NCBI GenBank assembly: GCA_049320885.1
Contig: JBMORA010000018.1
Coordinates: 1 to 64,000, forward strand
Direction of reading: 5' to 3'
From: Thermodesulfobacteriota bacterium
GTDB lineage: Bacteria > Desulfobacterota > Desulfobacteria > Desulfobacterales > SURF-7
Length of the DNA stretch: 64,000 nt
Shown: piece after piece, positions 4,209-21,363 of the stretch
Layout: each line of letters starts with the position of its first letter
Numbering within the stretch: the stretch's first letter is position 1
Notes under the pieces: model-generated
Told to the model about the DNA's origin: nothing
Seen by the model: the letters and a program-made list of their open reading frames with translations, nothing else
Database searches by the model: none
Translations under genes and position numbers: made by a program

Positions 4209-4787
4209 ATGCCCCCCCAAAAAAAGCTGCGGCTGACATACATTCTGGCCTTGGTCCTGCTGCTTGCCGGCGCCATATGCTATGCCGCATTCCCGGTCAA
4301 ACAACCGGAAGATCCCATTCGAAAAATGTTCAAAACCACCGCGGGAAAAGTTCTGTTTACCCACCATCAGCACCGGGCGGAAAAAGGGTACGCCGTCGCC
4401 TGTTTCGATTGCCACCATCACCATGAGGAGGATGCGGAAACACTTCGGCCGTGCGGCGACTGTCATCAGCCGGAAGATCCGCGGGAAGTCCCCGAGACCT
4501 GCCGCGAATGCCATGAGCCCGGTGAAGCCCACCATCCCGAATGGGAGGAAGGCGAAACGGAATCCGGCGGTGATGAAGTCCGGGCCTGCAAGGACTGCCA
4601 CCTGGTCAAGGACGGTGAATCCACTCCCGGGACCTGCCTTGACTGCCATGAAGCCGATGAAATCGGCGAACAGGAAAAAAAGATGAATTTTCAGAAACGT
4701 TCCGACGCGTTCCATAACCAGTGTATCGATTGTCACCGCCAATTCGGCAAGGGACCGGTGGAATGCGCGTCCTGCCACGTTATGTAA
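4209..4787 (+). CDS. Multiheme class III (c3-like) cytochrome c with 7 CXXCH motifs, first gene of the rnf operon
   Basis: Hydrophobic N-terminus; GKVLFTHHQH c3-type motif; CFDCH, CGDCH, CRECH, CKDCH, CLDCH, CIDCH, CASCH; AAGGAG RBS. Confidence 0.92.
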   Translation: MPPQKKLRLTYILALVLLLAGAICYAAFPVKQPEDPIRKMFKTTAGKVLFTHHQHRAEKGYAVACFDCHHHHEEDAETLRPCGDCHQPEDPREVPETCRECHEPGEAHHPEWEEGETESGGDEVRACKDCHLVKDGESTPGTCLDCHEADEIGEQEKKMNFQKRSDAFHNQCIDCHRQFGKGPVECASCHVM

Positions 4788-4804
4788 ATTCGGAAATGGA
4801 CCCA

Positions 4805-6097
4805 ATGATAAAAAGATCATTCATCGGATTGTATCAAGCCAGGCTGACATATGACGCCGTCGATCCCGGTGTTCAAAAAGCCAGAGCGGTCCGGCCGCGC
4901 CAATCGGTCCGGCTCCTCGTGGAATGTCCCATGCCCCCCGGCAAAAAACTGCTGCTGGCAACAGGCGACAAGGTCAAAGAAGGTCAGAAGCTGCTGCTGT
5001 CAAACAACTCCTCCTGTTACGCCATCGCGACCGCCGCCGGGATCATTTCCGCCATCGAACCCCATACCGGCAATTTCGGCCGGAAATACACTGCCGTCAC
5101 CATCACCCTCGACCCGGCCTCAGGGACGGACGACAGCTTCCGGACCGAATGCGGGCAACCGTCCATGAAGGTCCTCCGGGATTTTCTGGCCCACCTCCCT
5201 GGAACGCTGCCGCCTGCCCTGCTACCCCCCCTGGCAGGAAACAGACCGGAGCTTCATACCCTGGTGGTCCTCGGCATGGACAGCGACCTGCTGGTCAATA
5301 CCCGCCGGCATATTCTCCAATCGGGGACGGCGGCTGTCAAAACCGGTGTCCGCCTGCTGAAACAGATCACCGGCATCCAGAAAATAATTCTGGCCGTACC
5401 GGATGCCCTTTCCCAGGAAGCCCTTTCCGTGGGGGAACCGGTGCAAACCCTTTCCGCCGCCTATCCGTCGGCCCTGCCGCGTCTCATCGTGAAGAGCATA
5501 TCCGGGAATCCGGTCCCGGCGAGCAAGACCTGCGAAGAAGCGGGTTTCTGTTTCGTCAGCGTCGAAACGGCCGCCGCATTGGGCTCGGCCTTTGAAACCG
5601 GCGTCATCCCCAAGGAAAAACGCCTGACAATCGTCGACAAGCAAGGCCGGAAAACCATGATTTCCGCCGTTATCGGAACGTCCATCAAGGATATCCTGGA
5701 TGACCTCCATATCTCCCTGAACGAGGGGGACCGGCTCATCAACGGCGGCCCCATGACCGGCGAGGCGCTGCAAAGTGAATTCCATCCTGTCTGCCCGGAC
5801 ATGGACGCGATCTGCATTCAGGATAAGAACGCCATCCCCCTGGTGGAGAATTCCTATTGCATCAATTGCGGTGAATGCATCCGTATCTGCCCGGTGAATG
5901 TTCCGGTCAATCTGCTGGTACGCTACCTGGAAGCCGGTAGATATGACGAAGCCCGGGATCGTCAGGATCTGGACGCCTGCATCGAATGCGGTCTTTGCAG
6001 CTATGTCTGCACCGCGCGTATCCCCATATTTCAATATATCCGGCAGGCGAAATTCGAATTGGCCGGAGTTCATCCAGCGGAGGCCGGGAATGCATAA
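4805..6097 (+). CDS. rnfC: Rnf complex subunit C (divergent)
   Basis: GDKVKEGQ N-terminal barrel motif, GGPMTG (SLBB), two [4Fe-4S] motifs CINCGECIRICP and CIECGLCSYVC; position before rnfD. Start placed at MIKRSF (4805); 4796 is possible. Confidence 0.85.
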   Translation: MIKRSFIGLYQARLTYDAVDPGVQKARAVRPRQSVRLLVECPMPPGKKLLLATGDKVKEGQKLLLSNNSSCYAIATAAGIISAIEPHTGNFGRKYTAVTITLDPASGTDDSFRTECGQPSMKVLRDFLAHLPGTLPPALLPPLAGNRPELHTLVVLGMDSDLLVNTRRHILQSGTAAVKTGVRLLKQITGIQKIILAVPDALSQEALSVGEPVQTLSAAYPSALPRLIVKSISGNPVPASKTCEEAGFCFVSVETAAALGSAFETGVIPKEKRLTIVDKQGRKTMISAVIGTSIKDILDDLHISLNEGDRLINGGPMTGEALQSEFHPVCPDMDAICIQDKNAIPLVENSYCINCGECIRICPVNVPVNLLVRYLEAGRYDEARDRQDLDACIECGLCSYVCTARIPIFQYIRQAKFELAGVHPAEAGNA

Positions 6098-7052
6098 TAC
6101 GCGTAAATTGATCGTCTCACACGCCCCCTTCTGGCACGCCGGAAGCTCCATCACCGCAAGAAGCTGCCATATCATGGGAGCCGCCATGCTGGCCGTCATC
6201 CCGGGAATCGCCCAATACGGCGTCCCGGCCGTGGCGGTTGTCTGCCTGGCCATATCCTCCGCCATGATCTGGGAACTCCTGTTCAGCGTCATCGCCAAGA
6301 GACCGGTGGCCATCGCCGACGGCAACGCCGCCATGATCGGCATGATTTTCGCCATGCTGGTGCCGGCCACGACGCCCTGGTGGGCCGTTCTCACCGGAAC
6401 CTTTGTCGCGGTTATCATCGGCAAGCAAATTTACGGCGGCATCGGCGGGAACCCGTTCAACCCGGTTCTGATCGGCATCGCGATCCTGTCCCTTTCCTGG
6501 AAGGATTATTTCGACTTCACGGAAGCCCTGCTGGTGTATGACTTCGATTTTCCGGCGATCTACCCCCTTGCAGCCCTGAAAGCTTTCGGAACCGGCGCCA
6601 TCTCTTCCTTCACCCCCCTGGATTTGTTTCTCGGCCGCCAGATCGGGGGCATCGGCGCAACCTGCGGCCTGGCCCTTATGGTGGGCGGCGTCTACCTGAT
6701 CCTGCGCGGGTTCATCCGCTGGGAAATTTCCGTTTCCTTCCTCGCCGGCGTGTTTTTGTCCGCCCTGCTGTTTCAATTTTTCGGCGAGCCCGGCCGGTAT
6801 GCCGGCCCCCTGTTCCATCTGCTGACCGGCTATACCCTGATCGGCGCCTTTTTCCTGGCAACCGAGGACTCTTCTTCACCGGTTTATTTCTATCCCATGC
6901 TCATTTACGGCGCGGCTGCCGGCGTCATGACCGTGATGATCCGCAATATCGGCGCCTATGCGGATGGTGTCGTATACGCCATCCTGCTTCTGAACCTCGT
7001 CAACCCGATCATTGACAAAATCAGACCCAAAGCCATAGGAAAGGTAATCTGA
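6090..7052 (+). CDS. rnfD: Rnf complex subunit D
   Basis: Polytopic membrane protein with GKQIYGGIGGNPFNP and AFFLATE motifs; ATG at 6090 overlaps the 3' end of rnfC. Confidence 0.92.
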   Translation: MHNTRKLIVSHAPFWHAGSSITARSCHIMGAAMLAVIPGIAQYGVPAVAVVCLAISSAMIWELLFSVIAKRPVAIADGNAAMIGMIFAMLVPATTPWWAVLTGTFVAVIIGKQIYGGIGGNPFNPVLIGIAILSLSWKDYFDFTEALLVYDFDFPAIYPLAALKAFGTGAISSFTPLDLFLGRQIGGIGATCGLALMVGGVYLILRGFIRWEISVSFLAGVFLSALLFQFFGEPGRYAGPLFHLLTGYTLIGAFFLATEDSSSPVYFYPMLIYGAAAGVMTVMIRNIGAYADGVVYAILLLNLVNPIIDKIRPKAIGKVI

Positions 7053-7054
7053 CC

Positions 7055-7648
7055 ATGCGTGAAATCCTAAGTATGGTGATTGTATTGACGGTTCTGAGCG
7101 CCATGTCCGGCGGCCTGCTGGCCGCGCTCCGGGACAACACCATGGAAAAAATAGAATACCAGAAACTGAAATTTCTCAAGGCTCCCGCTGTCAAGGAGAT
7201 TCTCAAAGGCGCCGCCAATGATCCCATTACGGATAAATTCAAATTGAATGATGGCGAAACGGAAATCAGTTTCTTCGTGGGCGAGTTCGACGGCAAAAAG
7301 AATACGGTTTGTTTTGAAACCTTCGGCAAGGGGTATGGTGGGGACGTGGGCCTCATGGTGGGCGTCAACCTGGAAGAAGACAAGATCGTCAGCGTCGGTG
7401 TGACGACCCACAGCGAAACCCCCGGCCTGGGGGCCCGGGCCAAGGATTCCCAGGATCTGGCCAAACAGTTCAAGGGGATTTCCCTGGAGTCCCCTTTTAA
7501 AGTCAAAAACGACGGCGGCCAAATCGACGCCCTGGCCGGAGCCACCATTACTTCCCGGGCCGTCTGCAACGCCGCCAGCGACGCCGGGGCCATTTACAAA
7601 CGCCTGAAACCGGATATTCAGCAGAAAATCGACGCTCTCGAGAAATAA
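7055..7648 (+). CDS. rnfG: Rnf complex subunit G
   Basis: N-terminal TM, GKGYGG, ETPGLG and flavinylation-type motif DALAGATITS. Confidence 0.93.
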   Translation: MREILSMVIVLTVLSAMSGGLLAALRDNTMEKIEYQKLKFLKAPAVKEILKGAANDPITDKFKLNDGETEISFFVGEFDGKKNTVCFETFGKGYGGDVGLMVGVNLEEDKIVSVGVTTHSETPGLGARAKDSQDLAKQFKGISLESPFKVKNDGGQIDALAGATITSRAVCNAASDAGAIYKRLKPDIQQKIDALEK

Positions 7649-7674
7649 CCCGGACCGGCAAGGAGTACCAGCTT

Positions 7675-8298
7675 ATGGCAAAAACATTGACACAGGAATT
7701 CGTCAAGGGATTATGGGCGGAAGTGCCTCCCTTCCGGCTCGTGCTGGGTCTCTGCCCGACCCTGGGCGTCAGCACAAAAATGGAATACGGCATCGGCATG
7801 GGGCTTGCGACGGCTTTCGTATTGATCTGCTCCAACATCCTGATTGCAATGCTGCGCAACTATATCCCTTCCAAGGTCCGGATCGCCAGTTTTATCATCA
7901 TCATCGCCACTTTTGTCACGGTGGTTGAATTGCTGATGCAGGCGTATACCTATGAAATTTTTCTGCAACTGGGCATTTTCATCCCGCTGATCGTCGTCAA
8001 CTGCATATTGCTCGGCCGGGCCGAGGCATTTGCCAGCAAAAACGGAATACTAGCGTCCACGATGGACGGCGCCGGCATTGGTATCGGCTTTACCCTGGCG
8101 CTGGCCTCCATCGGCGCCATCCGGGAAATCCTGGGGACGGGTTCCCTGAGCGGAAACATTCTCAACCTGGTTACATACAATCTTCCGAACCTGTTCGGCA
8201 GTTCATATGAGCCTTTCACATTCATGACCCAGGCCCCCGGAGCCTTTGTCTGTCTCGGCATGATGCTGTGCCTGATGAATCTTGTCGGCAAAAAGTAG
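7675..8298 (+). CDS. rnfE: Rnf complex subunit E
   Basis: LGLCPTLG and FIPLIVVNCILLGRAEAFA motifs. Confidence 0.95.
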   Translation: MAKTLTQEFVKGLWAEVPPFRLVLGLCPTLGVSTKMEYGIGMGLATAFVLICSNILIAMLRNYIPSKVRIASFIIIIATFVTVVELLMQAYTYEIFLQLGIFIPLIVVNCILLGRAEAFASKNGILASTMDGAGIGIGFTLALASIGAIREILGTGSLSGNILNLVTYNLPNLFGSSYEPFTFMTQAPGAFVCLGMMLCLMNLVGKK

Positions 8299-8310
8299 GA
8301 GAAGAAATTC

Positions 8311-8886
8311 ATGACCCATTACCTTCTGCTCGCGATCAGTTGCATTCTGGTCAACAATATTCTGCTGGCCCAGTTTTTAGGCAATTGTCCGTTTCTGGGG
8401 ACTTCCAAAAAAATGGAAACCGCCGTGGGTATGGCCATGGCGGTAATCTTCGTTCTGGTGATGGCCGGCGCCTTCACCTGGATGACCAATACCTTCATCC
8501 TGAAACGGTTCGGGTTGGAATATCTGAAAACGATTTCCTTCATCTTGGTGATCGCCTCCCTGGTCCAGTTTGTGGAAATGTTTTTAAAGAAAAGCATCCC
8601 GGCTTTGTATGCCGGGCTCGGAATTTTCCTGCCCCTGATCACCACCAACTGTGCGGTTATGGGAGCTTGTCTGATCAACATCGACAAGGAATATACTTTT
8701 GTCGAATCCTTGGTCACTTCATTCGCATATGCGGCCGGTTTCGGTCTTGCCCTGATCCTGTTTGCCGGAATCCGGGAGCGCATTCTGCTGGCCAGAGTGC
8801 CGAAGCCCCTGCAGGACACCTCCATCGGGCTGGTGACCGCCGGCTTGATCGCCCTGTCTTTTTTTGCTTTCAAAGGCATGGTGTGA
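8311..8886 (+). CDS. rnfA: Rnf complex subunit A
   Basis: FLGNCPFLG and FLPLITTNCAV motifs. Confidence 0.95.
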   Translation: MTHYLLLAISCILVNNILLAQFLGNCPFLGTSKKMETAVGMAMAVIFVLVMAGAFTWMTNTFILKRFGLEYLKTISFILVIASLVQFVEMFLKKSIPALYAGLGIFLPLITTNCAVMGACLINIDKEYTFVESLVTSFAYAAGFGLALILFAGIRERILLARVPKPLQDTSIGLVTAGLIALSFFAFKGMV

Positions 8887-8930
8887 TCGCTTTTTTGAAA
8901 AGAAATGTTGATTCACGTTAGGAGGCCTTC

Positions 8931-11021
8931 GTGACAGTAGCCGTATTATTCATGTTGGGACTGGGTGTCGCCTGCGGCGCCATTCTGGCTGTCGCAGCCA
9001 AAGTTTTTTACGTCTTCGAGGACCCGCGGATCGCCGTCGTGGAGGGCCTCATGGCGGGAGCCAACTGCGGCGGATGCGGATTTGCCGGATGCTCGGCAGC
9101 GGCGGCGGCCGTCGTCAACGGCGAGGCGCCGCCCAATGTCTGTATCGTATCCGGTCCCGAGGCCGCTCAGCAGGTCGCGGCCGTCATGGGAATGGCCGTC
9201 GGCGCATCGGAGGCCCTGATTTCCAGGAATGAATGCAGCGGCGGTGATCGGGCCGATGACAAATTCATTTACATGGGTATCCCCACCTGCCGCGCCATGG
9301 CCTCCCTTTCCGGCGGCCGGCGCGTCTGCCGTGTCGGGTGCATCGGCCTGGGAGACTGCATCAAGGCCTGCGCCTTTGATGCCGTCAAAATGGGCCCCGA
9401 CGGCTATCCGGTGGTGGATGAGGCCAAATGCGTCGGCTGCGGCGCCTGTGAAAAAATCTGCCCCAAAAACATCATCCAGGTCCGCAGCATGTCCGAAAGG
9501 CTCCTGACCTTCAATCATACCGAAGCGGCCATGGCGCCCTGCGCCCAAACCTGCCCGGCTGAGATCGACATTCCACGCTATATTCGGCAGATCAAGGAAG
9601 GGGATTATGCCGCCGCCGTTCAGACGATTCGGGAACGCAATCCCCTGCTGCTGTCCTGCGGACGGGTCTGCCCCCACCCGTGCGAAGACAAATGCCGCCG
9701 GGGAATCGAGGATGAAGCCGTTTCCATCAACCAGCTCAAACGGTTTGCGGCCGATTATGAAATGAACAGCGGACGGCGCCTGCCCATCGCCTGCGCCCCG
9801 GATACCGGGAAAAAAGTGGCCGTGATCGGCGGCGGTCCCGCCGGATTGAGCTGCGCCTATTTCCTCCGGAGGCTCGGCCACAGCGTCACCATTTTCGAAA
9901 TGATGCCCAAGCTGGGCGGCATGATCCGGTACGGCATCCCCGAATACCGCCTGCCCAAAAAAGTCCTCCAATGGGAAATCGACGGCATTCTGAACCTGGG
10001 CGTGGAGGCCCATACCAACGTGAAACTCGGCTGCGATTTCGATCTGGCCTCCCTGGTGGCCTCCGGTTACGACGCCATTTTTCTCGGCATCGGCGCCTGG
10101 AAGGATTATAAAATGCGCATTGAGGGCGAGGATTTGAAAGGCTGCTATACCGGCATTGATTTCCTAACGCGGTTTTCCCGGCACCAGCAGGGCGACAGTG
10201 ATGTCAGCGTACCCATCGGCCGCAAATGCGCCGTGGTCGGCGGCGGCAATACCGCCATCGATTGTGTCCGCACCTTGATCCGCCTGGGCGCCGAGGAGGT
10301 TTCCATCGTTTACCGGCGCAGCCGCAAGGAAATGCCGGCCAATCTGGTGGAAATCGAGGCCGCCGAGCACGAAGGCGTCAAATTCCATTTCCTGGCCGCG
10401 CCCAACCGGGTTATCGGCAATGCCGACGGCCATGTCACCGGATTGGAATATCAACGCATGGAACTTGGTGAACCGGATGCCAGCGGTCGCAGGAGGCCGG
10501 TGCCGGTGCCGGGTTCGGAAACCGTGCTCGAAGTGGACATGCTGGTGACCGCCATCGGCCAGGGACCGGATATCGCCTTCAAGGACAAGGAAACCGGCAG
10601 GCGCCTCGCCGAACTGGAAACCTCCCGGTGGGATACCATCCAGTTCACCGATCCGGAAACCCTGCAGACCAACATCCCGTACATCTTCACCGCGGGCGAC
10701 GCAGCCACCGGCGCCTCCCTCGTGGTGGAAGCCATCGGCGGCGGTCGCCGGGCGGCTCGGTCCATCCATCTGTATCTGAATAATATGCCCATCACGCCGG
10801 TGCCCAATTCCCTGTTTAAAACCCATATTCCCGGCACCATTTTTGAGTCCGTCCCCGGCGTCGGCAAAAAGAAGCGGACCCCCATGCCGGAATTGCCGGT
10901 CCAGGAGCGGATCAAAAACTTCGCCGAGGCCGACCTGGTTATCAGCGAAACGGACGCCAGGTACGAAGCCGGACGCTGTTTGGATTGCTGTCGGATTTGT
11001 TACAACCAGGACGCGGCATAA
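8931..11021 (+). CDS. rnfB: RnfB fused to a GltD/SudA/NfnL-like FAD/NAD(P) oxidoreductase
   Basis: N-terminal TM, GANCGGCGFAGC and polyferredoxin motifs, then APCAQTCP/CGRVCPHPCE clusters, GGGPAG FAD loop, GGGNTA...YRR nucleotide site; GTG start with AGGAGG RBS. Confidence 0.92.
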   Translation: MTVAVLFMLGLGVACGAILAVAAKVFYVFEDPRIAVVEGLMAGANCGGCGFAGCSAAAAAVVNGEAPPNVCIVSGPEAAQQVAAVMGMAVGASEALISRNECSGGDRADDKFIYMGIPTCRAMASLSGGRRVCRVGCIGLGDCIKACAFDAVKMGPDGYPVVDEAKCVGCGACEKICPKNIIQVRSMSERLLTFNHTEAAMAPCAQTCPAEIDIPRYIRQIKEGDYAAAVQTIRERNPLLLSCGRVCPHPCEDKCRRGIEDEAVSINQLKRFAADYEMNSGRRLPIACAPDTGKKVAVIGGGPAGLSCAYFLRRLGHSVTIFEMMPKLGGMIRYGIPEYRLPKKVLQWEIDGILNLGVEAHTNVKLGCDFDLASLVASGYDAIFLGIGAWKDYKMRIEGEDLKGCYTGIDFLTRFSRHQQGDSDVSVPIGRKCAVVGGGNTAIDCVRTLIRLGAEEVSIVYRRSRKEMPANLVEIEAAEHEGVKFHFLAAPNRVIGNADGHVTGLEYQRMELGEPDASGRRRPVPVPGSETVLEVDMLVTAIGQGPDIAFKDKETGRRLAELETSRWDTIQFTDPETLQTNIPYIFTAGDAATGASLVVEAIGGGRRAARSIHLYLNNMPITPVPNSLFKTHIPGTIFESVPGVGKKKRTPMPELPVQERIKNFAEADLVISETDARYEAGRCLDCCRICYNQDAA

Positions 11022-11024
11022 AAA

Positions 11025-11050
11025 TAATTACGAATTGGGGATTACGAATG
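11025..11050. repeat. Heptamer-based repeat copy 1 (TAATTACGAATTGGGGATTACGAATG)
   Basis: AATTACG/AATTGGG units directly after the rnfB stop; inverted relative to copies 2 and 3. Confidence 0.85.
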
Positions 11051-11251: not shown

Positions 11252-11284
11252 CATTCGTAATTCGTAATTCCCAATTCGTAATTA
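11252..11284. repeat. Heptamer-based repeat copy 2
   Basis: CATTCGTAATTCGTAATTCCCAATTCGTAATTA, including the stop codon of the minus-strand gene. Confidence 0.85.
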
Positions 11285-12604
11285 TTCTAGCGCCGTTTCC
11301 GGGTGAAATACCCAGACATCCTTCAGATCATCGCCAAGGTAGGCGCGCTCATTGGGACCGAGAATCCCCAGGGAAAGCGCCAACAGGGTCCAGATGTGCA
11401 CTACTCCGTAATGCCCTTCATAATGCTCGCTCAGCTCATGAATCTGGGCGTGGCAGTTGTGACATCCGGCGATGCAGTACGTCGCGCCTGTCGCTTTGAT
11501 CTGCTCGTCCTTGATCTTGCCGTAGGCCAGGCGCTCGTCCTTGAATCCGGATTGGAGGAAACCGCCGCCGCCGCCGCAACAGAAATTGTTGGACTTGTTG
11601 GGCTGCATGTCGACGAAATTTTCCTCGCCTACGATGCTTTTGACCACAAAGCGCAGATCATCGGCAATGCTGTCGCCGAAACTCTTGCGGACGATCTGGC
11701 AGGGATCCTGGACCGTGAACTTGATTTTCAGGTCCTTGTTCCAGTCGGGATTCGGCTTCAGCCGGCCTTCCCGGATCCACTTGGCATAGTATTCATAAAT
11801 GTTCTTGACTTCGAAGGTGTGGGGGATGTTGAATTTTTTCAGTCCGGCCCGGACTGCGAATGTCACGTGCCCTCACTCGGTATTGAGGTACGTCTTGCAC
11901 CCCAGTTCCTCCACTTGCCTGGCTTTCACCCGAACAATTTTCTCCCAGTTCTCATTGTCGGCGATGAACAAGCAATAGTTTTCTCCTCCCCACCCTTTGC
12001 TGCCGTAAGTCCAGTTGACGCCGGCCAGATGCAAAATTTTCCAGAGCGGAACCATTTCATCCGGCTCCGTCACCGGTTCGCGGGAATTCTGGTTCAGGAA
12101 AAACTCGGCCCCCTCCTTGTCGACGGGCGCTTCCATGTCCTTGAACTCCGGCTGAATTTCCCGGTATTCGTTCAGCACATCCTCCACCACATAGGTAAAG
12201 TCGTCCGGAGAAGTGCCCATGGCGCTGCAACTTTCATTCCGGAGCGCCATATCGCAGGAGCCCAGGATGCCCTTGGGCCGTTGATCCCTGGGGCGCAATT
12301 GCCGCGCATTGAAAACCAGCTGCGGAATATCAATCTTCATGGGGCATACATATATGCACCGCTGACACATGGTGCACATCCACGGCCAGTTCGACGCGGC
12401 GATCTCATCGTCCATTCCCAGGGCTGCCATGCGCAGAAACTTCCTCGGATCCAACCCGGCCAAACCGGTTGCAGGACAACCCGATGCGCAGGCGCCGCAG
12501 GTCAGACAGGCATTCAGATTCCCGCCTTCCGGCAACAGCGCCTTCACCTTGTCTAAAAATATGCTTTGTTTCTTTCCGCCGATCTTTATTGCCTCATCAG
12601 CCAT
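11282..12604 (-). CDS. HdrD/DsrK/TmcB-like (Fe-S)-binding CCG-domain oxidoreductase, probable selenoprotein (Sec TGA at 11873-11875)
   Basis: ORFs 11873..12670 and 11282..11866 share a frame and join as YLNTE-TGA-GHVTF (family motif ECGH); two [4Fe-4S] motifs, DPC, CCGGGGG and CHNC; ATG 12604 with AGGAGG RBS; hairpin after the TGA. Confidence 0.9.
11840..11856 (-). promoter_or_regulatory. Candidate bacterial SECIS hairpin
   Basis: On the minus strand CAGTCCG-GGC-CGGACTG, a perfect 7-bp stem starting 16 nt after the in-frame UGA, with a G-rich loop. Confidence 0.75.
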
Positions 12605-12836: not shown

Positions 12837-12869
12837 CATTCGTAATTCCCAATTCGTAATTCGTAATTA
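12837..12869. repeat. Heptamer-based repeat copy 3
   Basis: CATTCGTAATTCCCAATTCGTAATTCGTAATTA, same orientation as copy 2. Confidence 0.85.
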
Positions 12870-12977: not shown

Positions 12978-14102
12978 ATGTACAAATCTTTTTACGGTTT
13001 TACGGAAAAGCCCTTTCACATCGTCCCCAATCCCCAGTTCCTGTTCATGAGCCAGAAACACCAGAACGCCCTGACCTATCTGGAATACGGTCTCGTGGAG
13101 CGGACGGGATTCGTCACCCTGACCGGCGAAATCGGCACGGGTAAGACCACGCTGATCCGGTATATCCTGGATCGCATGGAGCCGGACATGGAAGTGGCCG
13201 TCATCTTCAATACCAATGTTTCCTCGGACCAGATCATCAACCTGATCCTCCAGGAATTCGAGATTGAACCGCTCCCGGGGAACAAGGCCAAATCCCTGGA
13301 CCTGTTTTACAAATTTCTCATCGACCGCTATGCCCGGAAAAAACGCGTGCTGCTGGTCATCGATGAAGCCCAGAACCTGTCCCGGGAAGCCCTGGAAGAA
13401 ATCCGGATGTTGTCCAATCTCCAGAGCGACGAGGAAATGCTCCTGCAAATCATGCTGGTGGGACAACCGGAACTGAGAGACAAACTGCGGTCCCCGGCCC
13501 TCACCCAGTTTGCCCAGCGCATCGCCGTGAGCTATCATCTGTCGCCGCTCACCCGGGAAGAAACCGGCAGCTATATCGCCCATCGGCTCAAGAAAGCCGG
13601 AGGGGATGAGCATACATTCGCCGAAGACGCCGTGGATCTCATCCATCAGGCCGCCGGCGGCATTCCTCGGACCATCAACCTGCTATGCGACGCAGCCTTG
13701 GTGTATGGCTTCGCCGATGAGTTGAAACACATCGAAAGACCGGTAATCGAGCAGGTGATTCAGGACAAGGGCGGGATGGGTCTGTTCCTGGAGGAAGGCG
13801 GCCGGGATGAGAGCTCACCGCTTCCGGCCGGCGAATCGGCAAACAGCGTCCTTGAAAAACGCGTCGAACGCCTGGAAACCGGCCTGGCCGAATTGCGGCT
13901 GCAGGTGGAATGGAAGATGGAACAGTTGACCGATATTGCCGATGGCTATAAAGACCAGGTGGTCCATAAACTCCAGCGCCTGCTCATGATGGAAAAAAAG
14001 CGCAACGATATGCTGCTGATCGCCTATGGGAAGTTGAAAGAACGGCTGCAGGGGTTGAAAACATCGGAGAAGCCGTCAACGGAGGAAGACGGTAATTCAT
14101 GA
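12978..14102 (+). CDS. ExeA-family AAA ATPase (PEP-CTERM/exosortase-system associated)
   Basis: MYKSFYGFTEKPF start, Walker A GEIGTGKT, Walker B IDEAQNL, LVGQPEL, GIPRTINLLCD; coiled-coil C-terminus. Confidence 0.9.
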   Translation: MYKSFYGFTEKPFHIVPNPQFLFMSQKHQNALTYLEYGLVERTGFVTLTGEIGTGKTTLIRYILDRMEPDMEVAVIFNTNVSSDQIINLILQEFEIEPLPGNKAKSLDLFYKFLIDRYARKKRVLLVIDEAQNLSREALEEIRMLSNLQSDEEMLLQIMLVGQPELRDKLRSPALTQFAQRIAVSYHLSPLTREETGSYIAHRLKKAGGDEHTFAEDAVDLIHQAAGGIPRTINLLCDAALVYGFADELKHIERPVIEQVIQDKGGMGLFLEEGGRDESSPLPAGESANSVLEKRVERLETGLAELRLQVEWKMEQLTDIADGYKDQVVHKLQRLLMMEKKRNDMLLIAYGKLKERLQGLKTSEKPSTEEDGNS

Positions 14103-14215
14103 TGAATGCCGGCCTTCTGCAATCATGTCTCGAAGCGAGAGTCCCTTCAGGGATTGGTCTTCACGAAATTTGCGCAACTCACGAATCGTCTGTTCAGGCG
14201 ACCTCTTTATGGATG
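14097..14215 (-). pseudogene. Possible remnant of a Phd/YefM-type antitoxin C-terminus
   Basis: Reads PEQTIRELRKFREDQSLKGLSLRDMIAEGRH, resembling antitoxin C-termini; no intact N-terminal domain. Confidence 0.45.
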
Positions 14216-14244
14216 AGCTCTTTCGTAATTCAATCAAAATAGTT

Positions 14245-15078
14245 TCAGCTGCCGCTACCGTACAAATATTTGTCTTTCTCCGAGAGTCTCTGTTTGTTGA
14301 GCACGAATCCCAGCATTTTTTCATGGGGTATCAGTTCCATGGCCTTGGTCACATCCCGCATGGAGGTCTTGCCTTCTTCAACAACGACGATAATCCCATC
14401 CACCAATGGGGCAAAGGCAATGGTGTCGGCGCCGGTCAAAATCGGCGGGGTATCGAAAATGACATAGCGGTCGTCATACCGGTGCTTCATTTCCTCCACG
14501 ATCGCCTTCATGCGCGGCGACCCCAGCAGCTCCGCGCTGTCCTTGATGGTTCGCCCCCCGGAAATCACGGTCATTTTATCGATCCCCGGCCAGATGATAA
14601 TATCCTTCATGGGGCGGTCGTCCATCAAATAATCCGCGAGCCCCTTGTCGCTGCGAATTCCGAGATAGTGGTGAATCATCTGCTGCCGCAGATCGCAATC
14701 CACCAGTAGCACCGTCTGGCTGAAGGCCTTGGCAAACGTTAGCGCCAGGTTGATGGCGGTAAGAGTCTTTCCTTCCCTTGGCTGGACGCTCGTGATCATG
14801 ATGGCGTTCCAGCCCTGCTCCTTTGTTCGGTGCTCCACCTGGGTGCGTAGGATCTTATAAAAATCGATTTCCGGAGAGTCGGGGAACATTCCCACGCAGC
14901 GGTTCTGTTCCAGAATCATCGGGTCCACCATCACATGAGCGGATTCCGAATAGGTGGGAGGCTTCCAATCCCCATCCGGAATGCGGGTGGTCTGAACGCG
15001 CTGTTCCTGTGTTTCGGTTCCATCTCCGTCCCCCTGCCTGGCCTGTTTGGCCTTCTCGAGCGCTTTTTGTAGTTTCAT
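14245..15078 (-). CDS. Polysaccharide biosynthesis tyrosine autokinase (CpsD/CapB family)
   Basis: TSVQPREGKT Walker A, LLVDCDLR, IFDTPP, GFVLN, Tyr residues near the C-terminus. Confidence 0.92.
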   Translation of the reverse strand: MKLQKALEKAKQARQGDGDGTETQEQRVQTTRIPDGDWKPPTYSESAHVMVDPMILEQNRCVGMFPDSPEIDFYKILRTQVEHRTKEQGWNAIMITSVQPREGKTLTAINLALTFAKAFSQTVLLVDCDLRQQMIHHYLGIRSDKGLADYLMDDRPMKDIIIWPGIDKMTVISGGRTIKDSAELLGSPRMKAIVEEMKHRYDDRYVIFDTPPILTGADTIAFAPLVDGIIVVVEEGKTSMRDVTKAMELIPHEKMLGFVLNKQRLSEKDKYLYGSGS

Positions 15079-15145
15079 GTCCTTATTATCTCCCTAACTT
15101 TGAATTCAGCAGGGCAACAACGTATCGTTGAACAATTTTTACCTG

Positions 15146-16720
15146 TCACATCAATTGAAACTTACGCATTATCTTGGCCCAAAAGACATCAAGATCCATG
15201 ATAAATATATGAAATAATGTGATAGTGATAATAATGGAACAAAAAACAACCGCAACCACAGTGACATTTTTTATTTTCCGGAGTTTTAAATCTCTTTTGG
15301 TCACTATCAATGGGATACCTGATAATACAGGAAATTTTGTGGCATTTGAAACACTCATTGAGTTGTGAATGGAGTCGTCTGAGAATTCTATCAAGGAAGC
15401 AAAACCCGCCCCGACTCCTAATCCAAATATAATCCCGATCAATATTATCGCAACACGATTTGGCTTGAATGGCCTTTCCGGGAATCTTGCTGGATCGATG
15501 AGCGTAAATCTCTCGCCTTTCTGTTCTTTCTCAAGCCCATGGGCAACTCGCGCTTCCATCATCTTGCGCATTAAGTCATCATACTTTGCCTTACTATTGT
15601 TTCTTTCTGTAATAAGTTCATTATAGGCGCCCTCAATTCTTGAAGTTGTCCCAATTCTCAGATTGTATTGATTTATTTTTTCTCTTGTTGTTTTTATCTG
15701 GCGGCTAATGGAATCTATCTCAGCCTGCGTACTGGCGAGTTGCGATGAAAGCGTTACATAAGCGGGATTATCTGGACGAACCGAATTACTGTTTGGCGAT
15801 TCCGCCTTTTTTTTCAATCGCTTTTCAAGCTCTTCGATTTCCATTTTCATTTTAATGATATCTGGATATTCATTCGAAAATTTACTTTGAAGAGCGATCA
15901 ATTGCACCCTCAAGTCTTCAAGCCTCCTTTGATCCGTATCAAAGGTTTTACTTGGTGAAAGAGCGGCGACTTGGGCTTGCAGATACCCCTCTCGCTCTTT
16001 GACCATTCTCATTTGCTCATTCAAGCGGTCAATACTGGTTTCCAAGTTATTCACTGTCTGCAAATTAACATTTAACATTTCAGGGAGTTCATTTATATGT
16101 GTTTCTTTAAAAGCAGAAATTTTTGCATCCACAGCCTCAATATCCGCTTTGACTTTTTCCATTTCATCTTCCAAAAACTCCGAGGCTTCCATCGTTTGAC
16201 GTTCTCTAGCCTTTAGGTTTTCCTGCAAAAAAAAGGACGCCAAATCATTTGTTACTTGTTGGACTTTATTCGGATTTTTCCCTTCGTAAGATAGGGTGAA
16301 TGCAATGGTTGGGATAGCCTTTACGCCAGTTCTGGGATTTATCACTTCCGCACTGATTTTTTCGAACTTAATATCCTCCCGCATTTTGCCGATTATTTCC
16401 TCTGTAGTCCATTTATCTTTCAATTCGGGATAGAGTGACAAACGATTAATCAGGTCCAGTAGCCGCGTCGAACTCATTATCTGTTGATTTATGGACTGCA
16501 GCCGTTGATCGACATAGCTTGTAACCGTTGCCATTACGAAATCTTTAGGAATTTCCTGCTCCTCTATTAGAATGGTGGCGCTTGATTTATAGTAATTCGG
16601 AAGTGATAGCCCCACTATTAAAAATATAATAAAAACAATTCCGGCTGGAAGTATCAGGCTCCATTTCCGCCGCTTGACAATTTGGATTAAGTCAGACGGG
16701 GTAATGTTATTTCCCTCCAT
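15146..16720 (-). CDS. Polysaccharide chain-length determinant / co-polymerase (Wzz/GumC/Wzc-N family)
   Basis: Two terminal TM regions around a long coiled coil; YPD and IDPARFPERPFKPNR motifs; ATG 16720 with AAGGAG RBS. Confidence 0.9.
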   Translation of the reverse strand: MEGNNITPSDLIQIVKRRKWSLILPAGIVFIIFLIVGLSLPNYYKSSATILIEEQEIPKDFVMATVTSYVDQRLQSINQQIMSSTRLLDLINRLSLYPELKDKWTTEEIIGKMREDIKFEKISAEVINPRTGVKAIPTIAFTLSYEGKNPNKVQQVTNDLASFFLQENLKARERQTMEASEFLEDEMEKVKADIEAVDAKISAFKETHINELPEMLNVNLQTVNNLETSIDRLNEQMRMVKEREGYLQAQVAALSPSKTFDTDQRRLEDLRVQLIALQSKFSNEYPDIIKMKMEIEELEKRLKKKAESPNSNSVRPDNPAYVTLSSQLASTQAEIDSISRQIKTTREKINQYNLRIGTTSRIEGAYNELITERNNSKAKYDDLMRKMMEARVAHGLEKEQKGERFTLIDPARFPERPFKPNRVAIILIGIIFGLGVGAGFASLIEFSDDSIHNSMSVSNATKFPVLSGIPLIVTKRDLKLRKIKNVTVVAVVFCSIIITITLFHIFIMDLDVFWAKIMRKFQLM

Positions 16721-16769
16721 AATTGTCTCCTTTTCTAAGCTGTTCACCCGATGAGACCTATAAGCATTT

Positions 16770-18074
16770 TTATTTCAACATCTCGTAATTATATGATAAT
16801 TTAATGTATATACTGCTTCTATTTACGGTTTGAGATTTCAGCTTATCCAAAATTTTCGTATATCCGCATGCGCCCTCGAGCGCAAGCTTGGTAGAAAAGC
16901 TATACTGTAGCGTCGGAATAATACTGAATGTATCCTCATTAATATTATTTGTCGCAAGTTCGAAGGCATTGGCTTTATTTGAATAATAAATAATGTATAG
17001 ATATCCAAAAAATTCATAGGTAAAACGACGAGATACCATTAGTTTAAAATTTTCCCTCTGAGTAGCGCCATTTCTGCCACTTGCGGGTTTAACATCATAT
17101 GAATAAGACAATTGGGAAAATATTTTTTCCCCTTGATACGATATAGCGGTTTGCCCGACCCAGCCCGTTTGCTCATAGGCATTTTCAACCGTTTTATATT
17201 GGTAACTTATCGGATCGAATTGGATATCTGTAAAAACTGTTCTAGTATGTAGAATTCCCAAATTGAGAGCAAAAACCATCTTCTCGTTCATTCCCCATTT
17301 TGCATTTCCCATAACATAGTTTTGATCTAACTTTTGGTTTGAAAATGAGTACTTCGCGGAGCTTACCGTTAATTGGCCCAACAGATTCGGAATATACAGG
17401 GATAAATCACGGCTGGCCGTCAGGAAAATACTGTGAGCTTTCAGATCGCTAACAGATTCGTTGAGCAGATCTTCTTCATCATAATCGTCCTGCTCATACA
17501 CATAGGAAATATTTCCGGAGGTGATTTCTGAAAATTGATAATCACAAAGCAGATTGCCATAGTAGCGTTTGCGGTCAAGGTTTCCCAGTAGGATGCCGCT
17601 TGATTCCAAATCGCGATCCGGTTTCGAATCTTCCACAAATTTCGCTTCCGATGCAATAGAAAACTTGGGGCTGAAACGATAATCCATACTGCCCATATAA
17701 TTCTGATCCACTGCATCAAGATCTTTGTTCTCCCCGTATATGCGGAAATCGATATTCCCTAATAGTTCAACATTCGCTTTTTCTGTCCTTTCTGTCAGCT
17801 CAAGACCTGGAGAAAGAGTGGTTATCGCATCCTTGTTTTTATCCGTCGAGCTCCAAAAAATATTATCAACATATTCCTCCTTCATGTTGATGGAAGGTGT
17901 AAATTGGAAATCATCACCCCACGCGGGAATAGCTGTTAAAAGAGTATAAAAAACGGGTCCAATGATCGCCCGGCAATAAAATTGTAATATTTTCTTCCAT
18001 TTAAATCGAAATTTTCTACGGAAAAAAAAAGTCGGCTTTTGACTGCAACTATTTGTTCTGATTGTGAGTCTCAA
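16770..18074 (-). CDS. Outer-membrane beta-barrel protein of an EPS export locus
   Basis: FTPSINMKEEYVDNIF...DAITTLSPGL start of the barrel, amphipathic aromatic-rich strands; start codon uncertain (TTG 18074 chosen). Confidence 0.75.
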   Translation of the reverse strand: MRLTIRTNSCSQKPTFFFRRKFRFKWKKILQFYCRAIIGPVFYTLLTAIPAWGDDFQFTPSINMKEEYVDNIFWSSTDKNKDAITTLSPGLELTERTEKANVELLGNIDFRIYGENKDLDAVDQNYMGSMDYRFSPKFSIASEAKFVEDSKPDRDLESSGILLGNLDRKRYYGNLLCDYQFSEITSGNISYVYEQDDYDEEDLLNESVSDLKAHSIFLTASRDLSLYIPNLLGQLTVSSAKYSFSNQKLDQNYVMGNAKWGMNEKMVFALNLGILHTRTVFTDIQFDPISYQYKTVENAYEQTGWVGQTAISYQGEKIFSQLSYSYDVKPASGRNGATQRENFKLMVSRRFTYEFFGYLYIIYYSNKANAFELATNNINEDTFSIIPTLQYSFSTKLALEGACGYTKILDKLKSQTVNRSSIYIKLSYNYEMLK

Positions 18075-18114
18075 GCGTTTCCTTAATTGTATAGACGATA
18101 GTAGAACAGTATAA

Positions 18115-18690
18115 TTAAGGGACAATAATGATATCATCACGTTGTAGCATTATATTTTGGATCAGGCTTCGTCCTTCTGCAACATCAGAGTAATCAAATT
18201 GTAATACATTGATTTTTCCATCAATTTTTCTAAAAATCTTGATTTCATCTTCTTCGGCAAAAGGATTTAAACCACCGGCCATTGCCAAGGCCTGCAGAAC
18301 GTCGGTATTACCCCGCAAATCATAGCGACCTGGCCTATTAACCCTTCCAATCAGATAGATTGCGAGGCTGTTCACCTGTTGAACTTCCAAGTGAAGAATC
18401 GGATCTGGAACATACTTTTTAACCCGCTCCTTAATTTCCTGTTGCAGCTCCGCAACCGTCTTGCCGGCTGCGATTAATTCACCGACCAAAGGAAAATAGA
18501 TTTTACCGTCAGGTAATACGATGCATTGTTTTGTCAGGGCCTCATCCTTCCATACGGAAATAAAAAGCACATCGCCTTGGCCGATTTGATAGTCCTGTCT
18601 GACCGCAGCAGACGACTTTTCAATTTCGCCAGCCAGGGGAAAAGATGGGAAAAAAAATATGTAAATGGCGATAAACAGAATTTTTTTCAT
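18115..18690 (-). CDS. Polysaccharide export protein (Wza/Poly_export + SLBB)
   Basis: YQIGQGDVLFISVW, PDGKIYFPLVG, GRVNRPG, ALAMAGG; signal peptide. Confidence 0.92.
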   Translation of the reverse strand: MKKILFIAIYIFFFPSFPLAGEIEKSSAAVRQDYQIGQGDVLFISVWKDEALTKQCIVLPDGKIYFPLVGELIAAGKTVAELQQEIKERVKKYVPDPILHLEVQQVNSLAIYLIGRVNRPGRYDLRGNTDVLQALAMAGGLNPFAEEDEIKIFRKIDGKINVLQFDYSDVAEGRSLIQNIMLQRDDIIIVP

Positions 18691-18770
18691 AACGTTTCCT
18701 CTATGTTATTTGGCATCCCATTTTATTTGAGCTGCGCCCGGCTGTCGCAGGATCGGCGAAACAGCGAATT

Positions 18771-21185
18771 TTACCTTATCGTTTTTAATTGTTGCAGCCT
18801 CTTCAGCACACGCTCCGCGTCCCTTTTCCACCCTACGTCTTTTTCTCCCTCAACCGCTTTTTCCAACTTCTCCTGCGCCTCTGCTGTTCGCCCCAGTTTT
18901 TCGTAGACCATGCCGAGATGATAGTTCACGATGTTGTTTTCCGGGGCTTCCGCTGCAGCCTGTTCTATAAAAGTCAGCGATTTGTTATAATCTCCCATGC
19001 GGTAATGAATCCAACCTAGCGTGTCGGCAACCATTGGATCTCTAGGGCGGAGCTTCATGGCTTTCTCCCCCAATTCAAGGGCTTTTTTCAGATCCCCCTC
19101 GGAAACGGAATGCTCGCCCAGCAGATAAGCTAGGTTGTTCAAGGCGGTCCAATTGTTCGGATTGGTCGCGACCAGTTTTTCATAGACTGACCTGGCCTTT
19201 TGATGATCGCCACTTTGTTCATGAAGTCCGGCCAGTGAGAGCGCGGCGGCCACGTTAGTGGGATCTGCCTGATAGGCCTTATCGAATTTTGCGACGGCTT
19301 CATCCTTTTTGCCCATCACCAGATACAGTTGGGCAATGTTGTTATGGGGTGTCTGCCATTCGGGTTGATAATCGATGGCTTTCAGGAAAGCAGTTTCCGC
19401 CCTTACGAAATCACGCTTGGCGGAATACACATTCCCCAACAAATTATAGTTGAAAGCCGCCTCCTGGGGTTTCTGTTTTATCCGATCCTCGCACACCTGA
19501 ATGGCCTTGTCGAATTGCTGGGTGGCATTATACAGGCGGACAAGGCCTGACAATATCTCAGCGGACTGTCCCGTTCTGGCATATCCGTTCTCCAGCTCGG
19601 CAATCGCCCCCTCCAACTTGTTCTGCCTTGCCTTCAGCTGCGCCGTTCGAATATAGCCCAAGGGTAAATCCGGTACCTGGTTCTTCACCATCTCGTATTG
19701 AACGGCTGCATTGCTGAAGTCACCTCTGGCCACATAAAAATCCCCCAAATCCAGGCGGGCTTTCGGATCCTTCGGGTCATCCTCCAAAATCGTTTTCAAT
19801 TGTTTTTCAGCGCTCGTCGGGTCTTTTTGGATCACATTCAATCTTGCCAGGGCTCGCCGCAGTTCTTTGGATCCGGGATTGCTTTTCAGCGCCGCGCTTA
19901 AAACATCCACGGCCAGATTCATTTCCTTGTTCATCACATGGGCCGCAGCGAGCTGCAAATGGCCTTCCACAAAATTCGGTTTTTCAGCCACCACGGTTCG
20001 CAAAGCGGCGACCGCGCTTACGCCGTCTCCCTTTAACATGCCGATGCGGCCTTTGGCATAGGAAGCATCTATGTTTTTACCGCTTTCCTTCAGCACTTCG
20101 TCCGTCAATTTTTCCGCCGGCTCTATCTGGCCCAGCATCAAGTAAAGACTGGTCAACGAGTTCTTGGCATTGATGAGGCCCGGATTGGCCGGATCTTTTT
20201 CAAATGTCAGGGCGTTTTTCAATACTCCCAGGGCTTCATCCGTTTTTTGCCGGCCCACCAGAAATTCGCTCATGGCGATACTCAACTGGAAGCTTTTGGG
20301 GCATTTTTCCATCCCCTTGCGTAGCATTTTTTCAGCATCGTCGATCAATTCCCGACTGGCGTAAAACTGGGCGATCTTGATATACCGCTCATCATCCTCT
20401 GGTTTTTCCGAAACCATTCTGGAAAAAAGTTCCTCTGCCTGATCCGGTCTTTCGGAATCCCAATAGATACTCGCCAGAATATACCGATAATTGGTATTCT
20501 CCGGTTCCAGTTTGATTAATTCCTGGATCGCCGTTTCCGCTTGCCGAATATCCTTGATTTCATAATAATGACGCGCCAGAGCTGAATACGCCAGTGTTGA
20601 TTTAGGGTTCCGTTCGATTCCGGCCTTTAAAACTTCCTGCACTTTTTCCGGCTGCTTCTCCAGGGCGTAGGCTGACGCCAGCATGACGTATACATCCGGT
20701 TCCGTCATTCCTTTTGTAATCAGATCCTCCAGGCTGGCAATTGCTTCCATCGCCTTTTTCTGGCTTAGCAAAACCGCGCCCTTCAGTTTCAGCGCTTGCC
20801 GACTCCCAGGGTCCAGCTTTAATACCAGATCGATTTTTTCGCTTGCCCGTTTCACATCCCGGGCAGCCAGAAACAGCTTACCCAGCTCCAAATTGGCGTC
20901 CTGGTGCTCCGGCATCAGATCGACCGTTTTACTAAAAGCGCCGAAAGCGTTCTGGAATTTTTTTGCCTTCAGCTCTGCCATTCCCAGCATATAGTAAGCT
21001 TCCGCATATTTCGGATCAATCTGGAGGGCGTTCTTGAACTCAAGGGACGCTTTGACAAAATCACCCTTTTCATAAAGCTCTTTGCCCTTGCTGTAAAATT
21101 TCTGTTTTTTTTCTTCAGGACCGCTGCAGGCTGCAATGAGACAGATCAGCAGTACCGTCATCGTCGTTGTTATGGTTTTTTTCAT
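18771..21185 (-). CDS. TPR-repeat lipoprotein (PrsT-like, PEP-CTERM system)
   Basis: Lipobox IAAC, many TPR repeats (EFKNALQIDPKYAEAYY), C-terminal LNNLAY...DTLGWI. Confidence 0.88.
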   Translation of the reverse strand: MKKTITTTMTVLLICLIAACSGPEEKKQKFYSKGKELYEKGDFVKASLEFKNALQIDPKYAEAYYMLGMAELKAKKFQNAFGAFSKTVDLMPEHQDANLELGKLFLAARDVKRASEKIDLVLKLDPGSRQALKLKGAVLLSQKKAMEAIASLEDLITKGMTEPDVYVMLASAYALEKQPEKVQEVLKAGIERNPKSTLAYSALARHYYEIKDIRQAETAIQELIKLEPENTNYRYILASIYWDSERPDQAEELFSRMVSEKPEDDERYIKIAQFYASRELIDDAEKMLRKGMEKCPKSFQLSIAMSEFLVGRQKTDEALGVLKNALTFEKDPANPGLINAKNSLTSLYLMLGQIEPAEKLTDEVLKESGKNIDASYAKGRIGMLKGDGVSAVAALRTVVAEKPNFVEGHLQLAAAHVMNKEMNLAVDVLSAALKSNPGSKELRRALARLNVIQKDPTSAEKQLKTILEDDPKDPKARLDLGDFYVARGDFSNAAVQYEMVKNQVPDLPLGYIRTAQLKARQNKLEGAIAELENGYARTGQSAEILSGLVRLYNATQQFDKAIQVCEDRIKQKPQEAAFNYNLLGNVYSAKRDFVRAETAFLKAIDYQPEWQTPHNNIAQLYLVMGKKDEAVAKFDKAYQADPTNVAAALSLAGLHEQSGDHQKARSVYEKLVATNPNNWTALNNLAYLLGEHSVSEGDLKKALELGEKAMKLRPRDPMVADTLGWIHYRMGDYNKSLTFIEQAAAEAPENNIVNYHLGMVYEKLGRTAEAQEKLEKAVEGEKDVGWKRDAERVLKRLQQLKTIR

Positions 21186-21363
21186 TTTACCCTCGGATAA
21201 GATTGAATGCTGGTAACGCACCTATAGTGAATTTATTCTAATAAATCAATATGAAATCCAACACAGAGGTCGCAACGGAATAATCTCTTTCCGTTTTGGT
21301 CTCTATCATGGTTCTTTTGAGCCTTCGTTTTGGCGCTGGGAGCTGATCCGATTTGGTTGGTTC

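Follow-up and report, generated by a model that had tools for sequence, protein, structure and literature searches.

An Rnf2-type operon of a Desulfobacterales bacterium retains the cofactor ligands of the outward leg of the Rnf complex and lacks the flavin ligands of the return leg

Among the Rnf and related complexes described to date (general background in PMC12174285, PMC4014512, PMC4046663 and PMC2702500), the variant designated Rnf2 combines an RnfB of approximately 700 amino acids bearing NAD+-binding sites, an RnfC without an NADH domain and a cytochrome encoded in the cluster (PMC5109826, citing Wohlbrand 2016). A non-classical mode of action has been suggested for it, along with a partner of RnfC that is still to be identified (PMC5109826). 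Rnf2 differs in RnfB and RnfC, belongs to the Desulfobacteraceae core genome and is abundantly made (PMC11887813). In Desulfococcus multivorans, an organism without periplasmic hydrogenases or formate dehydrogenases, both Rnf2 and Qrc are made under all conditions, and the electron donor of Qrc is called unknown in print (PMC5109826, PMC11887813). The accessible literature yielded no biochemical assay of Rnf2. Here we describe an Rnf2-type operon at positions 4209 to 11021 of a 64,000-nucleotide stretch of DNA (hereafter the window; contig JBMORA010000018.1 of assembly GCA_049320885.1) from a member of the Desulfobacterales, in which the ligands of the outward leg of the complex are intact and the flavin ligands of the return leg, formed by RnfD and RnfC, are gone.

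The operon consists of seven open frames with no internal stops, all on the + strand, in the order cytochrome c3-rnfC-D-G-E-A-B; this order and the coordinates, proposed in an earlier reading of the letters alone (the sequence-only reading), are upheld by the open frames and by family scans. All six RnfABCDGE subunits are present with Rnf folds, and each scores higher against Rnf than against Nqr models. Gene spacing, together with the data for the Desulfovibrio alaskensis G20 operon considered below, suggests that the genes are co-transcribed; a promoter and terminator scan of the operon gave matches at chance level only. A pseudogene or frameshift was ruled out by the open frames and by ratios of nonsynonymous to synonymous substitution (dN/dS) below 0.3 in every gene, as calculated from one pair, the window and its nearest relative L084, with dS of 0.6-1.1.

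With an RnfB of 696 amino acids carrying a nucleotide module, an RnfC scoring below the Complex1_51K cut-off and a cytochrome c gene, the operon is, as judged by the described traits, an intact further member of the published Rnf2, or Desulfobacula toluolica Tol2, type, with which it shares a long RnfB, an RnfC without NADH signature, an acidic cytochrome and coexistence with a canonical Rnf1. The closest named loci are metagenome-assembled genomes of Desulfobacterales. Three differences are apparent: the window cytochrome has seven heme motifs whereas D. multivorans Rnf2 has a 15 kDa cytochrome; the RnfB sites are called NAD+-binding in the Rnf2 publications while the window motifs are of NADP type; and the published Rnf2 passages contain neither a loss of the RnfD site for flavin mononucleotide (FMN) nor export to a cytochrome pool.

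Alignment of each subunit to solved canonical complexes (Acetobacterium woodii 9ERI, Clostridium tetanomorphum 7ZC6, Azotobacter vinelandii 8AHX), with cofactor ligands scored, gave the pattern that the sequence-only reading had claimed. Shared with canonical Rnf are the six subunits and their folds, the FMN-bearing Thr of RnfG, the Fe-S ligands and pump residues of RnfA and RnfE, the Asn and acidic residue of the riboflavin site and RnfC's pair of [4Fe-4S] motifs; unlike canonical Rnf, the window complex lacks the covalent-FMN site of RnfD and the FMN/NAD motifs of RnfC, and has in addition a flavin adenine dinucleotide (FAD) module on RnfB and a cytochrome.

The loss in RnfD (6090..7052, +) is stronger than had been supposed from the apparent absence of the flavinylated Thr. 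Five residues have been named in the FMN pocket, T153, R130, E185, G237 and S284 in C. tetanomorphum numbering, of which G237 touches the flavin ring (PMC9588780). Mapped by hand on the alignment, all five are changed, to Y158 (codon 6561..6563, +), I130, A190, Y248 and V295, respectively; the S284 position is also variable among canonical loci. The exchange at Y158 is that of the engineered NqrB-T236Y mutant (PDB 9ud3), and among the closest RnfD homologues Tyr occupies this position in 119 of 119 and the Y248 position in 118 of 119. The riboflavin ligands persist, N124 unchanged and D248 as E259, and the AlphaFold model (predicted local distance difference test, pLDDT, 86.5; TM-score 0.82-0.85 to solved Rnf subunits) speaks for the fold only. 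Searches of the openly available literature gave no mention of a loss of this site in Rnf2 or in Desulfovibrio Rnf; the supplement of PMC11887813 may hold one.

RnfC (4805..6097, +, with an alternative ATG at 4796) scores 24.4 bits against Complex1_51K, where the curated cut-off is 31.2, and 161 against 246 for TIGR01945; in the family scan SLBB gave no match at E 0.01. Within its NuoF-like domain the glycine loop GxGGAxFP has become LPGTLPP and NGAECEP (NGxECEP) has become LGMDSDL (residues 129-165; 5189..5299, +), and YPQG has become YPSA, so that the motifs which we take to be binders of FMN and NAD are absent, as the sequence-only reading had noted. The AlphaFold model (pLDDT 91.4; TM-score 0.79 to a solved Rnf subunit), which likewise bears on the fold only, indicates that it is the ligands rather than the fold that have been lost. 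A paralogous Rnf of the same genome (contig C43, locus L001) served as a control and retains all RnfC and RnfD motifs, which argues that the losses are not alignment noise.

The outward leg presents the opposite picture. RnfG (7055..7648, +), which scores above the NCBIfam RnfG_DVU2794 cut-off, keeps the DALAGAT motif recognized earlier, and this motif aligns, with T164 (codon 7544-7546), to the flavinylated motif (dN/dS 0.10). C26 and C114 of RnfA (8311..8886, +) and C27 and C110 of RnfE (7675..8298, +) align without gaps to the four Fe-S ligands of A. woodii, in agreement with the four membrane Cys seen previously, and the dN/dS of rnfA is 0.014. Residues that gate or bind Na+ have been identified in both subunits (PMC11889175); those kept are L23, K33, P108, L109, T111, T112 and R155 in RnfA and L24, R69, L105 and E117 in RnfE, while two in RnfA differ (Y105, here F106; E158, here L159).

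RnfB (8931..11021, +) comprises in residues 1-190 an RnfB proper, with membrane helix, mobile Fe-S domain and ferredoxin domain, followed at approximately 196-690 by a GltD-family FAD/NAD(P) module of StnC type (Fer4_20 plus Pyr_redox_2), the whole oxidoreductase perceived in the sequence-only reading. The module carries GGGNTAID, YRRS, Lys270 at the position of StnC K170 and a C-terminal RCLDC, and the top matches of the extension in the structural database are of StnC/NfnABC type (379-422 bits, versus 331-338 for NfnB/NfnL). Since these matches use NADPH, and since GGGNTAID and YRRS are presumably NADP-specific fingerprints, the module is likely of NADP type. A bifurcating flavoprotein of NfnB type was considered and rejected, because Lys270 stands, as does K170 in non-bifurcating StnC, in place of Glu, and because the operon has no nfnA. 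Unlike the StnC/NfnA(ABC) module that is its best match (8OH5, 9N5U, 9BOV; PMC10482914), which has Lys at the same position, the window module is fused to a membrane-anchored RnfB, and the operon encodes no HydBC-like bifurcating partner. The first gene of the operon (4209..4787, +) encodes a heptaheme cytochrome c3 (PF02085, seven CxxCH motifs, a hydrophobic N-terminal helix) homologous both to the 4-heme cytochromes of Rnf2 and to the decaheme DhcA-type protein.

The distribution of these traits was examined across 96 loci, namely 80 of 150 listed RnfD matches (the 40 top-scoring and 40 picked by hand), 13 named loci, the window, L001 and a metagenome locus, L103, a sample enriched for close relatives; RnfD matches occur in 163 of 401 genomes of the phylum. 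With RnfD motif class scored on the linker region, the loci divide into 68 non-canonical and 28 canonical, and the losses in RnfC and RnfD coincide. Every canonical RnfD has [ST]xATP, R130 and E185, and 27 of the 28 loci have two or more of the three RnfC motifs (L083 has one). Among the 68 non-canonical loci, [ST]xATP and R130 are found in none and E185 in two; Thr (6/68) or Ser (8/68) may occupy the Thr column, never with the motif, and none of the three RnfC motifs occurs in any (one RnfC, L087, is truncated). Mean identity in the FMN domain of RnfC is 0.26 in non-canonical versus 0.55 in canonical loci, while in the ferredoxin domain the values are 0.45 and 0.49. In trees of 91 rows the 62 non-canonical members separate with FastTree support of 1.0 (RnfE plus RnfA) and 0.997 (RnfD), and the Shimodaira-Hasegawa-like approximate likelihood ratio test gives 100 for the same split on RnfE plus RnfA, genes not used in defining the groups. 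By these trees the two losses mark one clade, throughout which the outward-leg ligands are kept: RnfG GA[T/S] in 67/68, RnfA C26 in 62/62, and RnfE C27 and R69 in 66/66.

The two gains, a cytochrome gene and a fused RnfB, are optional within the clade. A multiheme cytochrome lies upstream of rnfC in 50 of the 65 clade loci whose upstream sequence is available, and in none of the 28 canonical ones. As for rnfB, the 68 clade loci comprise 37 fused, 9 short, 2 short on the opposite strand, 9 not adjacent and 11 cut off (fusion in 37 of 57 with a visible 3' end), and the NADP-type motifs of the 37 fused proteins are intact in 20, degenerate in 13, of an acidic variant in 2 and truncated in 2. Loci with all four traits, the NADP-type module being intact, number 13 among the 56 in which both ends are visible. 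The sequence-only reading had staked its proposal beforehand on co-occurrence of the four; across the 96 loci the losses in RnfC and in RnfD always go together and the gains do not, and an obligatory package of four is thus rejected, only the losses being clade-wide.

Several clade loci and relatives show further variation around rnfB. An nfnA-nfnB-like pair follows rnfA in place of rnfB in two clade loci (L023:6628-9197, L024:282-2851), and a short rnfB-like gene diverges from the cytochrome-led operon in two others (L005:625-1437, L006:8340-9152). The 13 fused RnfB proteins with degenerate NADP motif (L004, L010, L012, L016, L020, L021, L026, L039, L041, L049, L056, L079 and L092) all keep their Fe-S ligands, and in most of them the FAD motif is altered. 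L067-L072 form a subtype with canonical motifs, an RnfG of approximately 300 amino acids, an RnfA of approximately 320 and in some a very short RnfB; it is a second copy in genomes that also carry a non-canonical Rnf.

The clade extends to the genus Desulfovibrio. Twelve primers for the rnf operon of D. alaskensis G20 have been printed (PMC4841214), and a scan with one of them returned eight metagenome loci, seven of them chance matches without rnf genes; L103 alone matches 12 of 12, exactly and in order, and is used as a stand-in for G20 rather than as the reference sequence. It encodes a decaheme cytochrome, RnfCDGEA, an RnfB of 289 amino acids and an ApbE-like protein, the last named via the gene order in PMC4841214. 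Its RnfD has LVNPL at the Thr site, its RnfC is without any glycine loop, and in the trees it nests within the non-canonical clade beside loci with fused RnfB. The dhcA-rnfCDGEAB-apbE operons of Desulfovibrio (G20 Dde_0580-0587; D. vulgaris DVU2791-2798) share with the window operon their clade, gene order, a homologous cytochrome, the RnfG_DVU2794 family and, in L103, the same RnfC and RnfD losses, and differ in the short RnfB without NADP module, the decaheme cytochrome and the presence of apbE. In print, Desulfovibrionaceae Rnf is grouped with Rnf1 (PMC11887813), and the G20 complex is treated as a ferredoxin:NADH oxidoreductase required on H2, formate, ethanol, malate and fumarate (PMC4215793). 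For G20, attempts to assay ferredoxin:NAD+-coupled ion pumping in vesicles failed, the proton motive force is lowered in the rnfA mutant, and the rnfD mutant has the milder phenotype of the two (PMC4841214); ferredoxin:cytochrome c3 is one of two options given for D. vulgaris Rnf (PMC10920352).

Taken together, the ligand pattern points, with modest confidence on our part, to a transmembrane one-way wire in which electrons from NADPH, or from ferredoxin where RnfB is short as in the G20-type operon, would pass through RnfB, RnfA/E and RnfG to the c3 pool and on to Qrc. NADPH would be oxidized at the FAD module of RnfB, of the non-bifurcating type, and electrons would follow the RnfB Fe-S chain to the [2Fe-2S] center of RnfA/E, crossing the membrane there in company with Na+ (or H+), as happens in the Rnf of A. 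woodii. In that system the electron and Na+ move across jointly at RnfA/E, and RnfD performs electron transfer only (PMC11889175). Because the flavin ligands of the return leg are gone, RnfG would have to discharge outside, its FMN passing electrons either to the cytochrome encoded in the operon or to the c3 pool at large, with Qrc, in place of the RnfD/RnfC return leg, returning them to menaquinone for sulfate reduction. Cytochrome c3 has a potential of approximately -300 mV, and NADPH (approximately -370 mV) could reduce it. The step would be nearly electroneutral and reversible, with outward flow as the probable main direction and charge separated later by Qrc, and RnfC and RnfD would serve to keep RnfB and RnfG positioned. 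Also in favor of this reading are the frequent cytochrome gene of the clade, the G20 results on vesicles and on the rnfA and rnfD mutants, the making of both Rnf2 and Qrc by D. multivorans, and the precedent of Methanosarcina acetivorans Rnf. QrcCD, DsrP, ApbE and several c3-type cytochromes are encoded in the genome. QrcD was matched in 57 of the 69 genomes that carry a non-canonical Rnf; where all RnfD/NqrB matches were of other kinds the figure was 3 of 94, and where there were none it was 25 of 238. Genomes were assigned to these groups by an RnfG score of 155 bits, one further genome being added by its motif type, and related genomes are not independent; QrcD and this Rnf may both simply mark sulfate reducers.

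A broader version, somewhat short of an even chance in our estimation, is that the main Rnf of sulfate-reducing Desulfobacterota, the G20 complex included, is no ferredoxin:NAD+ oxidoreductase but a half-loop ion-pump clade, carrying electrons from NADPH or ferredoxin to c3 with Qrc as return leg and supplying the missing route from organic carbon to menaquinone in complete oxidizers. Of the path from the cytochrome through RnfG, RnfA/E and RnfB to NADP(H) set out in the sequence-only reading, the wiring stands as the best supported explanation, and three of its four traits, the long RnfB, stripped RnfC and cytochrome, were already published for Rnf2 (PMC5109826, PMC11887813). What is added here is the loss of the RnfD pocket, a clade in which Rnf2 and the G20-type complex fall together, and a proposed connection between the reaction of Rnf2 and the electron donor of Qrc that is sought in the Desulfobacteraceae. 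Given that G20 falls in the same clade, the idea is testable in a model strain, whose mutant data would need to be read anew. At the sequence level the clade also departs from the statement of a 2025 review that membrane cofactors are strictly conserved across RNF/NQR.

A number of observations weigh against this export to c3. The main puzzle, if RnfC and RnfD are scaffold only, is what they retain: both [4Fe-4S] motifs of RnfC (8 Cys) in 68 of 68 non-canonical loci, and the RnfD riboflavin ligands N124 in 60/68 and D/E248 in 68/68, with dN/dS of 0.11 for RnfD and of 0.086 for the ferredoxin domain of RnfC (0.28 for its FMN domain). The FMN/NAD and covalent-FMN ligands are indeed lost; to call the branch decayed, as was done at first, is nevertheless an overstatement, the Fe-S and riboflavin ligands being by these ratios under purifying selection, and a scaffold role, although part of the favored explanation, is not supported in its pure form. 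By the trees the two losses arose once, and their co-occurrence is a single event rather than repeated evidence. An adjacent cytochrome is missing in 15 of 65 clade loci (cut off in three more), 13 of the 37 fused RnfB proteins have a degenerate NADP motif, and a QrcD match is absent from 12 of the 69 genomes with non-canonical Rnf. In G20, the fitness of dhcA mutants is normal under almost every condition, DhcA being placed outside the Rnf path by the authors (PMC4215793), and growth of the rnfD mutant is poor on H2 and delayed on formate (PMC4841214).

Unlikely in our judgment, but the strongest of the competitors, is an altered loop in which the RnfG flavin would enter the vacated RnfD pocket, or a non-covalent flavin would sit there, and electrons would pass via riboflavin to menaquinone, or via the RnfC clusters to a cytoplasmic acceptor other than NAD+. 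The complex would then be a Na+ pump of NADPH:quinone (or NADPH:disulfide) type that resembles Nqr by convergence, with the cytochrome as an accessory branch. The selected riboflavin and RnfC Fe-S ligands and the contrasting dhcA and rnfD phenotypes are as it would have them; an RnfD-like protein without the Thr has been modelled taking the RnfG flavin into its pocket (PMC10979944), which also counts against export; a further RnfC partner has been called for (PMC5109826); and Nqr provides a precedent, with a nucleotide module at the RnfB position and a cofactor-less RnfC homologue. The pocket itself argues otherwise, as bulky residues stand in it in place of small ones (the invariant or nearly invariant Y158 and Y248 of the closest homologues, and W130 in 32 of 68 non-canonical loci), Tyr now standing where G237 contacts the flavin ring, and RnfD, which in the window is of ordinary length, does not have the extra N-terminal helices that form the quinone site of NqrB.

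The same wiring could instead run mainly inward, from periplasmic H2 or formate through c3, RnfG, RnfA/E and RnfB to NADP+ or ferredoxin, to serve biosynthesis and the fixation of CO2. G20 rnf genes are up approximately 2-fold on H2 and are required both there and on formate, DhcA has been proposed to carry electrons from hydrogenase to Rnf (PMC4841214), and the window genome contains a match to a NiFeSe-type hydrogenase. Such use is nonetheless quite improbable, for D. multivorans, with no periplasmic hydrogenases or formate dehydrogenases, makes Rnf2 in abundance, G20 Rnf is needed also on ethanol, malate and fumarate with a lowered proton motive force in the rnfA mutant, and reduction of ferredoxin from c3 would, from the potentials, be uphill.

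We consider it very improbable that the entry points are merely swapped, with ferredoxin entering at RnfC, NAD(P) at RnfB and the ferredoxin and pyridine-nucleotide pools still linked. This comes nearest to the way in which Rnf2 is treated in print, as a sodium pump linking NADH to ferredoxin/NADP pools (PMC11887813), itself a point against export, and the ferredoxin domain of RnfC is conserved. It requires, however, the FMN step at RnfD, whose ligands are gone; with unchanged pump residues the downhill direction would let Na+ in (cf. PMC11889175); and it is inapplicable to the clade members with short RnfB (9/68), which have no nucleotide site at all. That the operon is an ordinary ferredoxin:NAD+ Rnf of divergent sequence or a decaying paralogue is scarcely credible, since, for all that the RnfC and RnfD folds are intact and the genome also has a canonical Rnf and Nqr (a separate nqr-like cluster on contig C30), the diagnostic ligands are all lost where the paralogue keeps them, selection is purifying in every gene, 42 of 69 genomes with this type have a single RnfD-family match only, and Rnf2 is a core, abundantly made complex (PMC11887813).

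Systems further afield share parts of the pattern. The Rnf of Methanosarcina acetivorans makes no use of NAD(P), and its modelled exit runs from RnfG to a multiheme cytochrome c (PMC4023990). Its co-transcribed cytochrome MmcA, an RnfC without NAD(P) and Na+ pumping are likenesses, while it differs in being archaeal, in its donor ferredoxin and acceptor methanophenazine, and in an RnfD with a possible flavin motif (PMC4023990). Na+-Nqr has a nucleotide-oxidizing module at the RnfB position, but NqrB keeps covalent FMN and NqrA is without Fe-S (PMC12174285); identity with Na+-Nqr was rejected, as the FNR-type NqrF, the NqrB with covalent FMN and quinone-site helices and the NqrA without Fe-S are all absent and Rnf models outscore Nqr models for every subunit. 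Two-subunit Nqr/Rnf-like systems (PMC10979944, PMC8238504) share an RnfD-like subunit without the Thr, a loss noted in PMC10979944, and a proposed one-way export, and differ in being without RnfA/E and RnfC (PMC10979944).

Downstream of the operon, positions 11282-12604 (-) encode an HmcF/TmcB-like Fe-S protein in which codon 244 is an in-frame TGA (NTE-x-GH), 440 amino acids long if TGA is read as selenocysteine (U), and likely a selenoprotein; a hairpin 3' of the TGA did not exceed shuffled sequences (z -1.1). A 14-base word occurs in three exact copies (0.03 expected) in the intergenic sequence around this gene, at 11026-11039 (+), 11270-11283 (-) and 12848-12861 (-). Beyond it, positions 12978-21221 hold what appears, with genes named by eye, to be an exopolysaccharide export-like cluster of ATPase, tyrosine-kinase-like, chain-length, outer-membrane and tetratricopeptide repeat (TPR) proteins.

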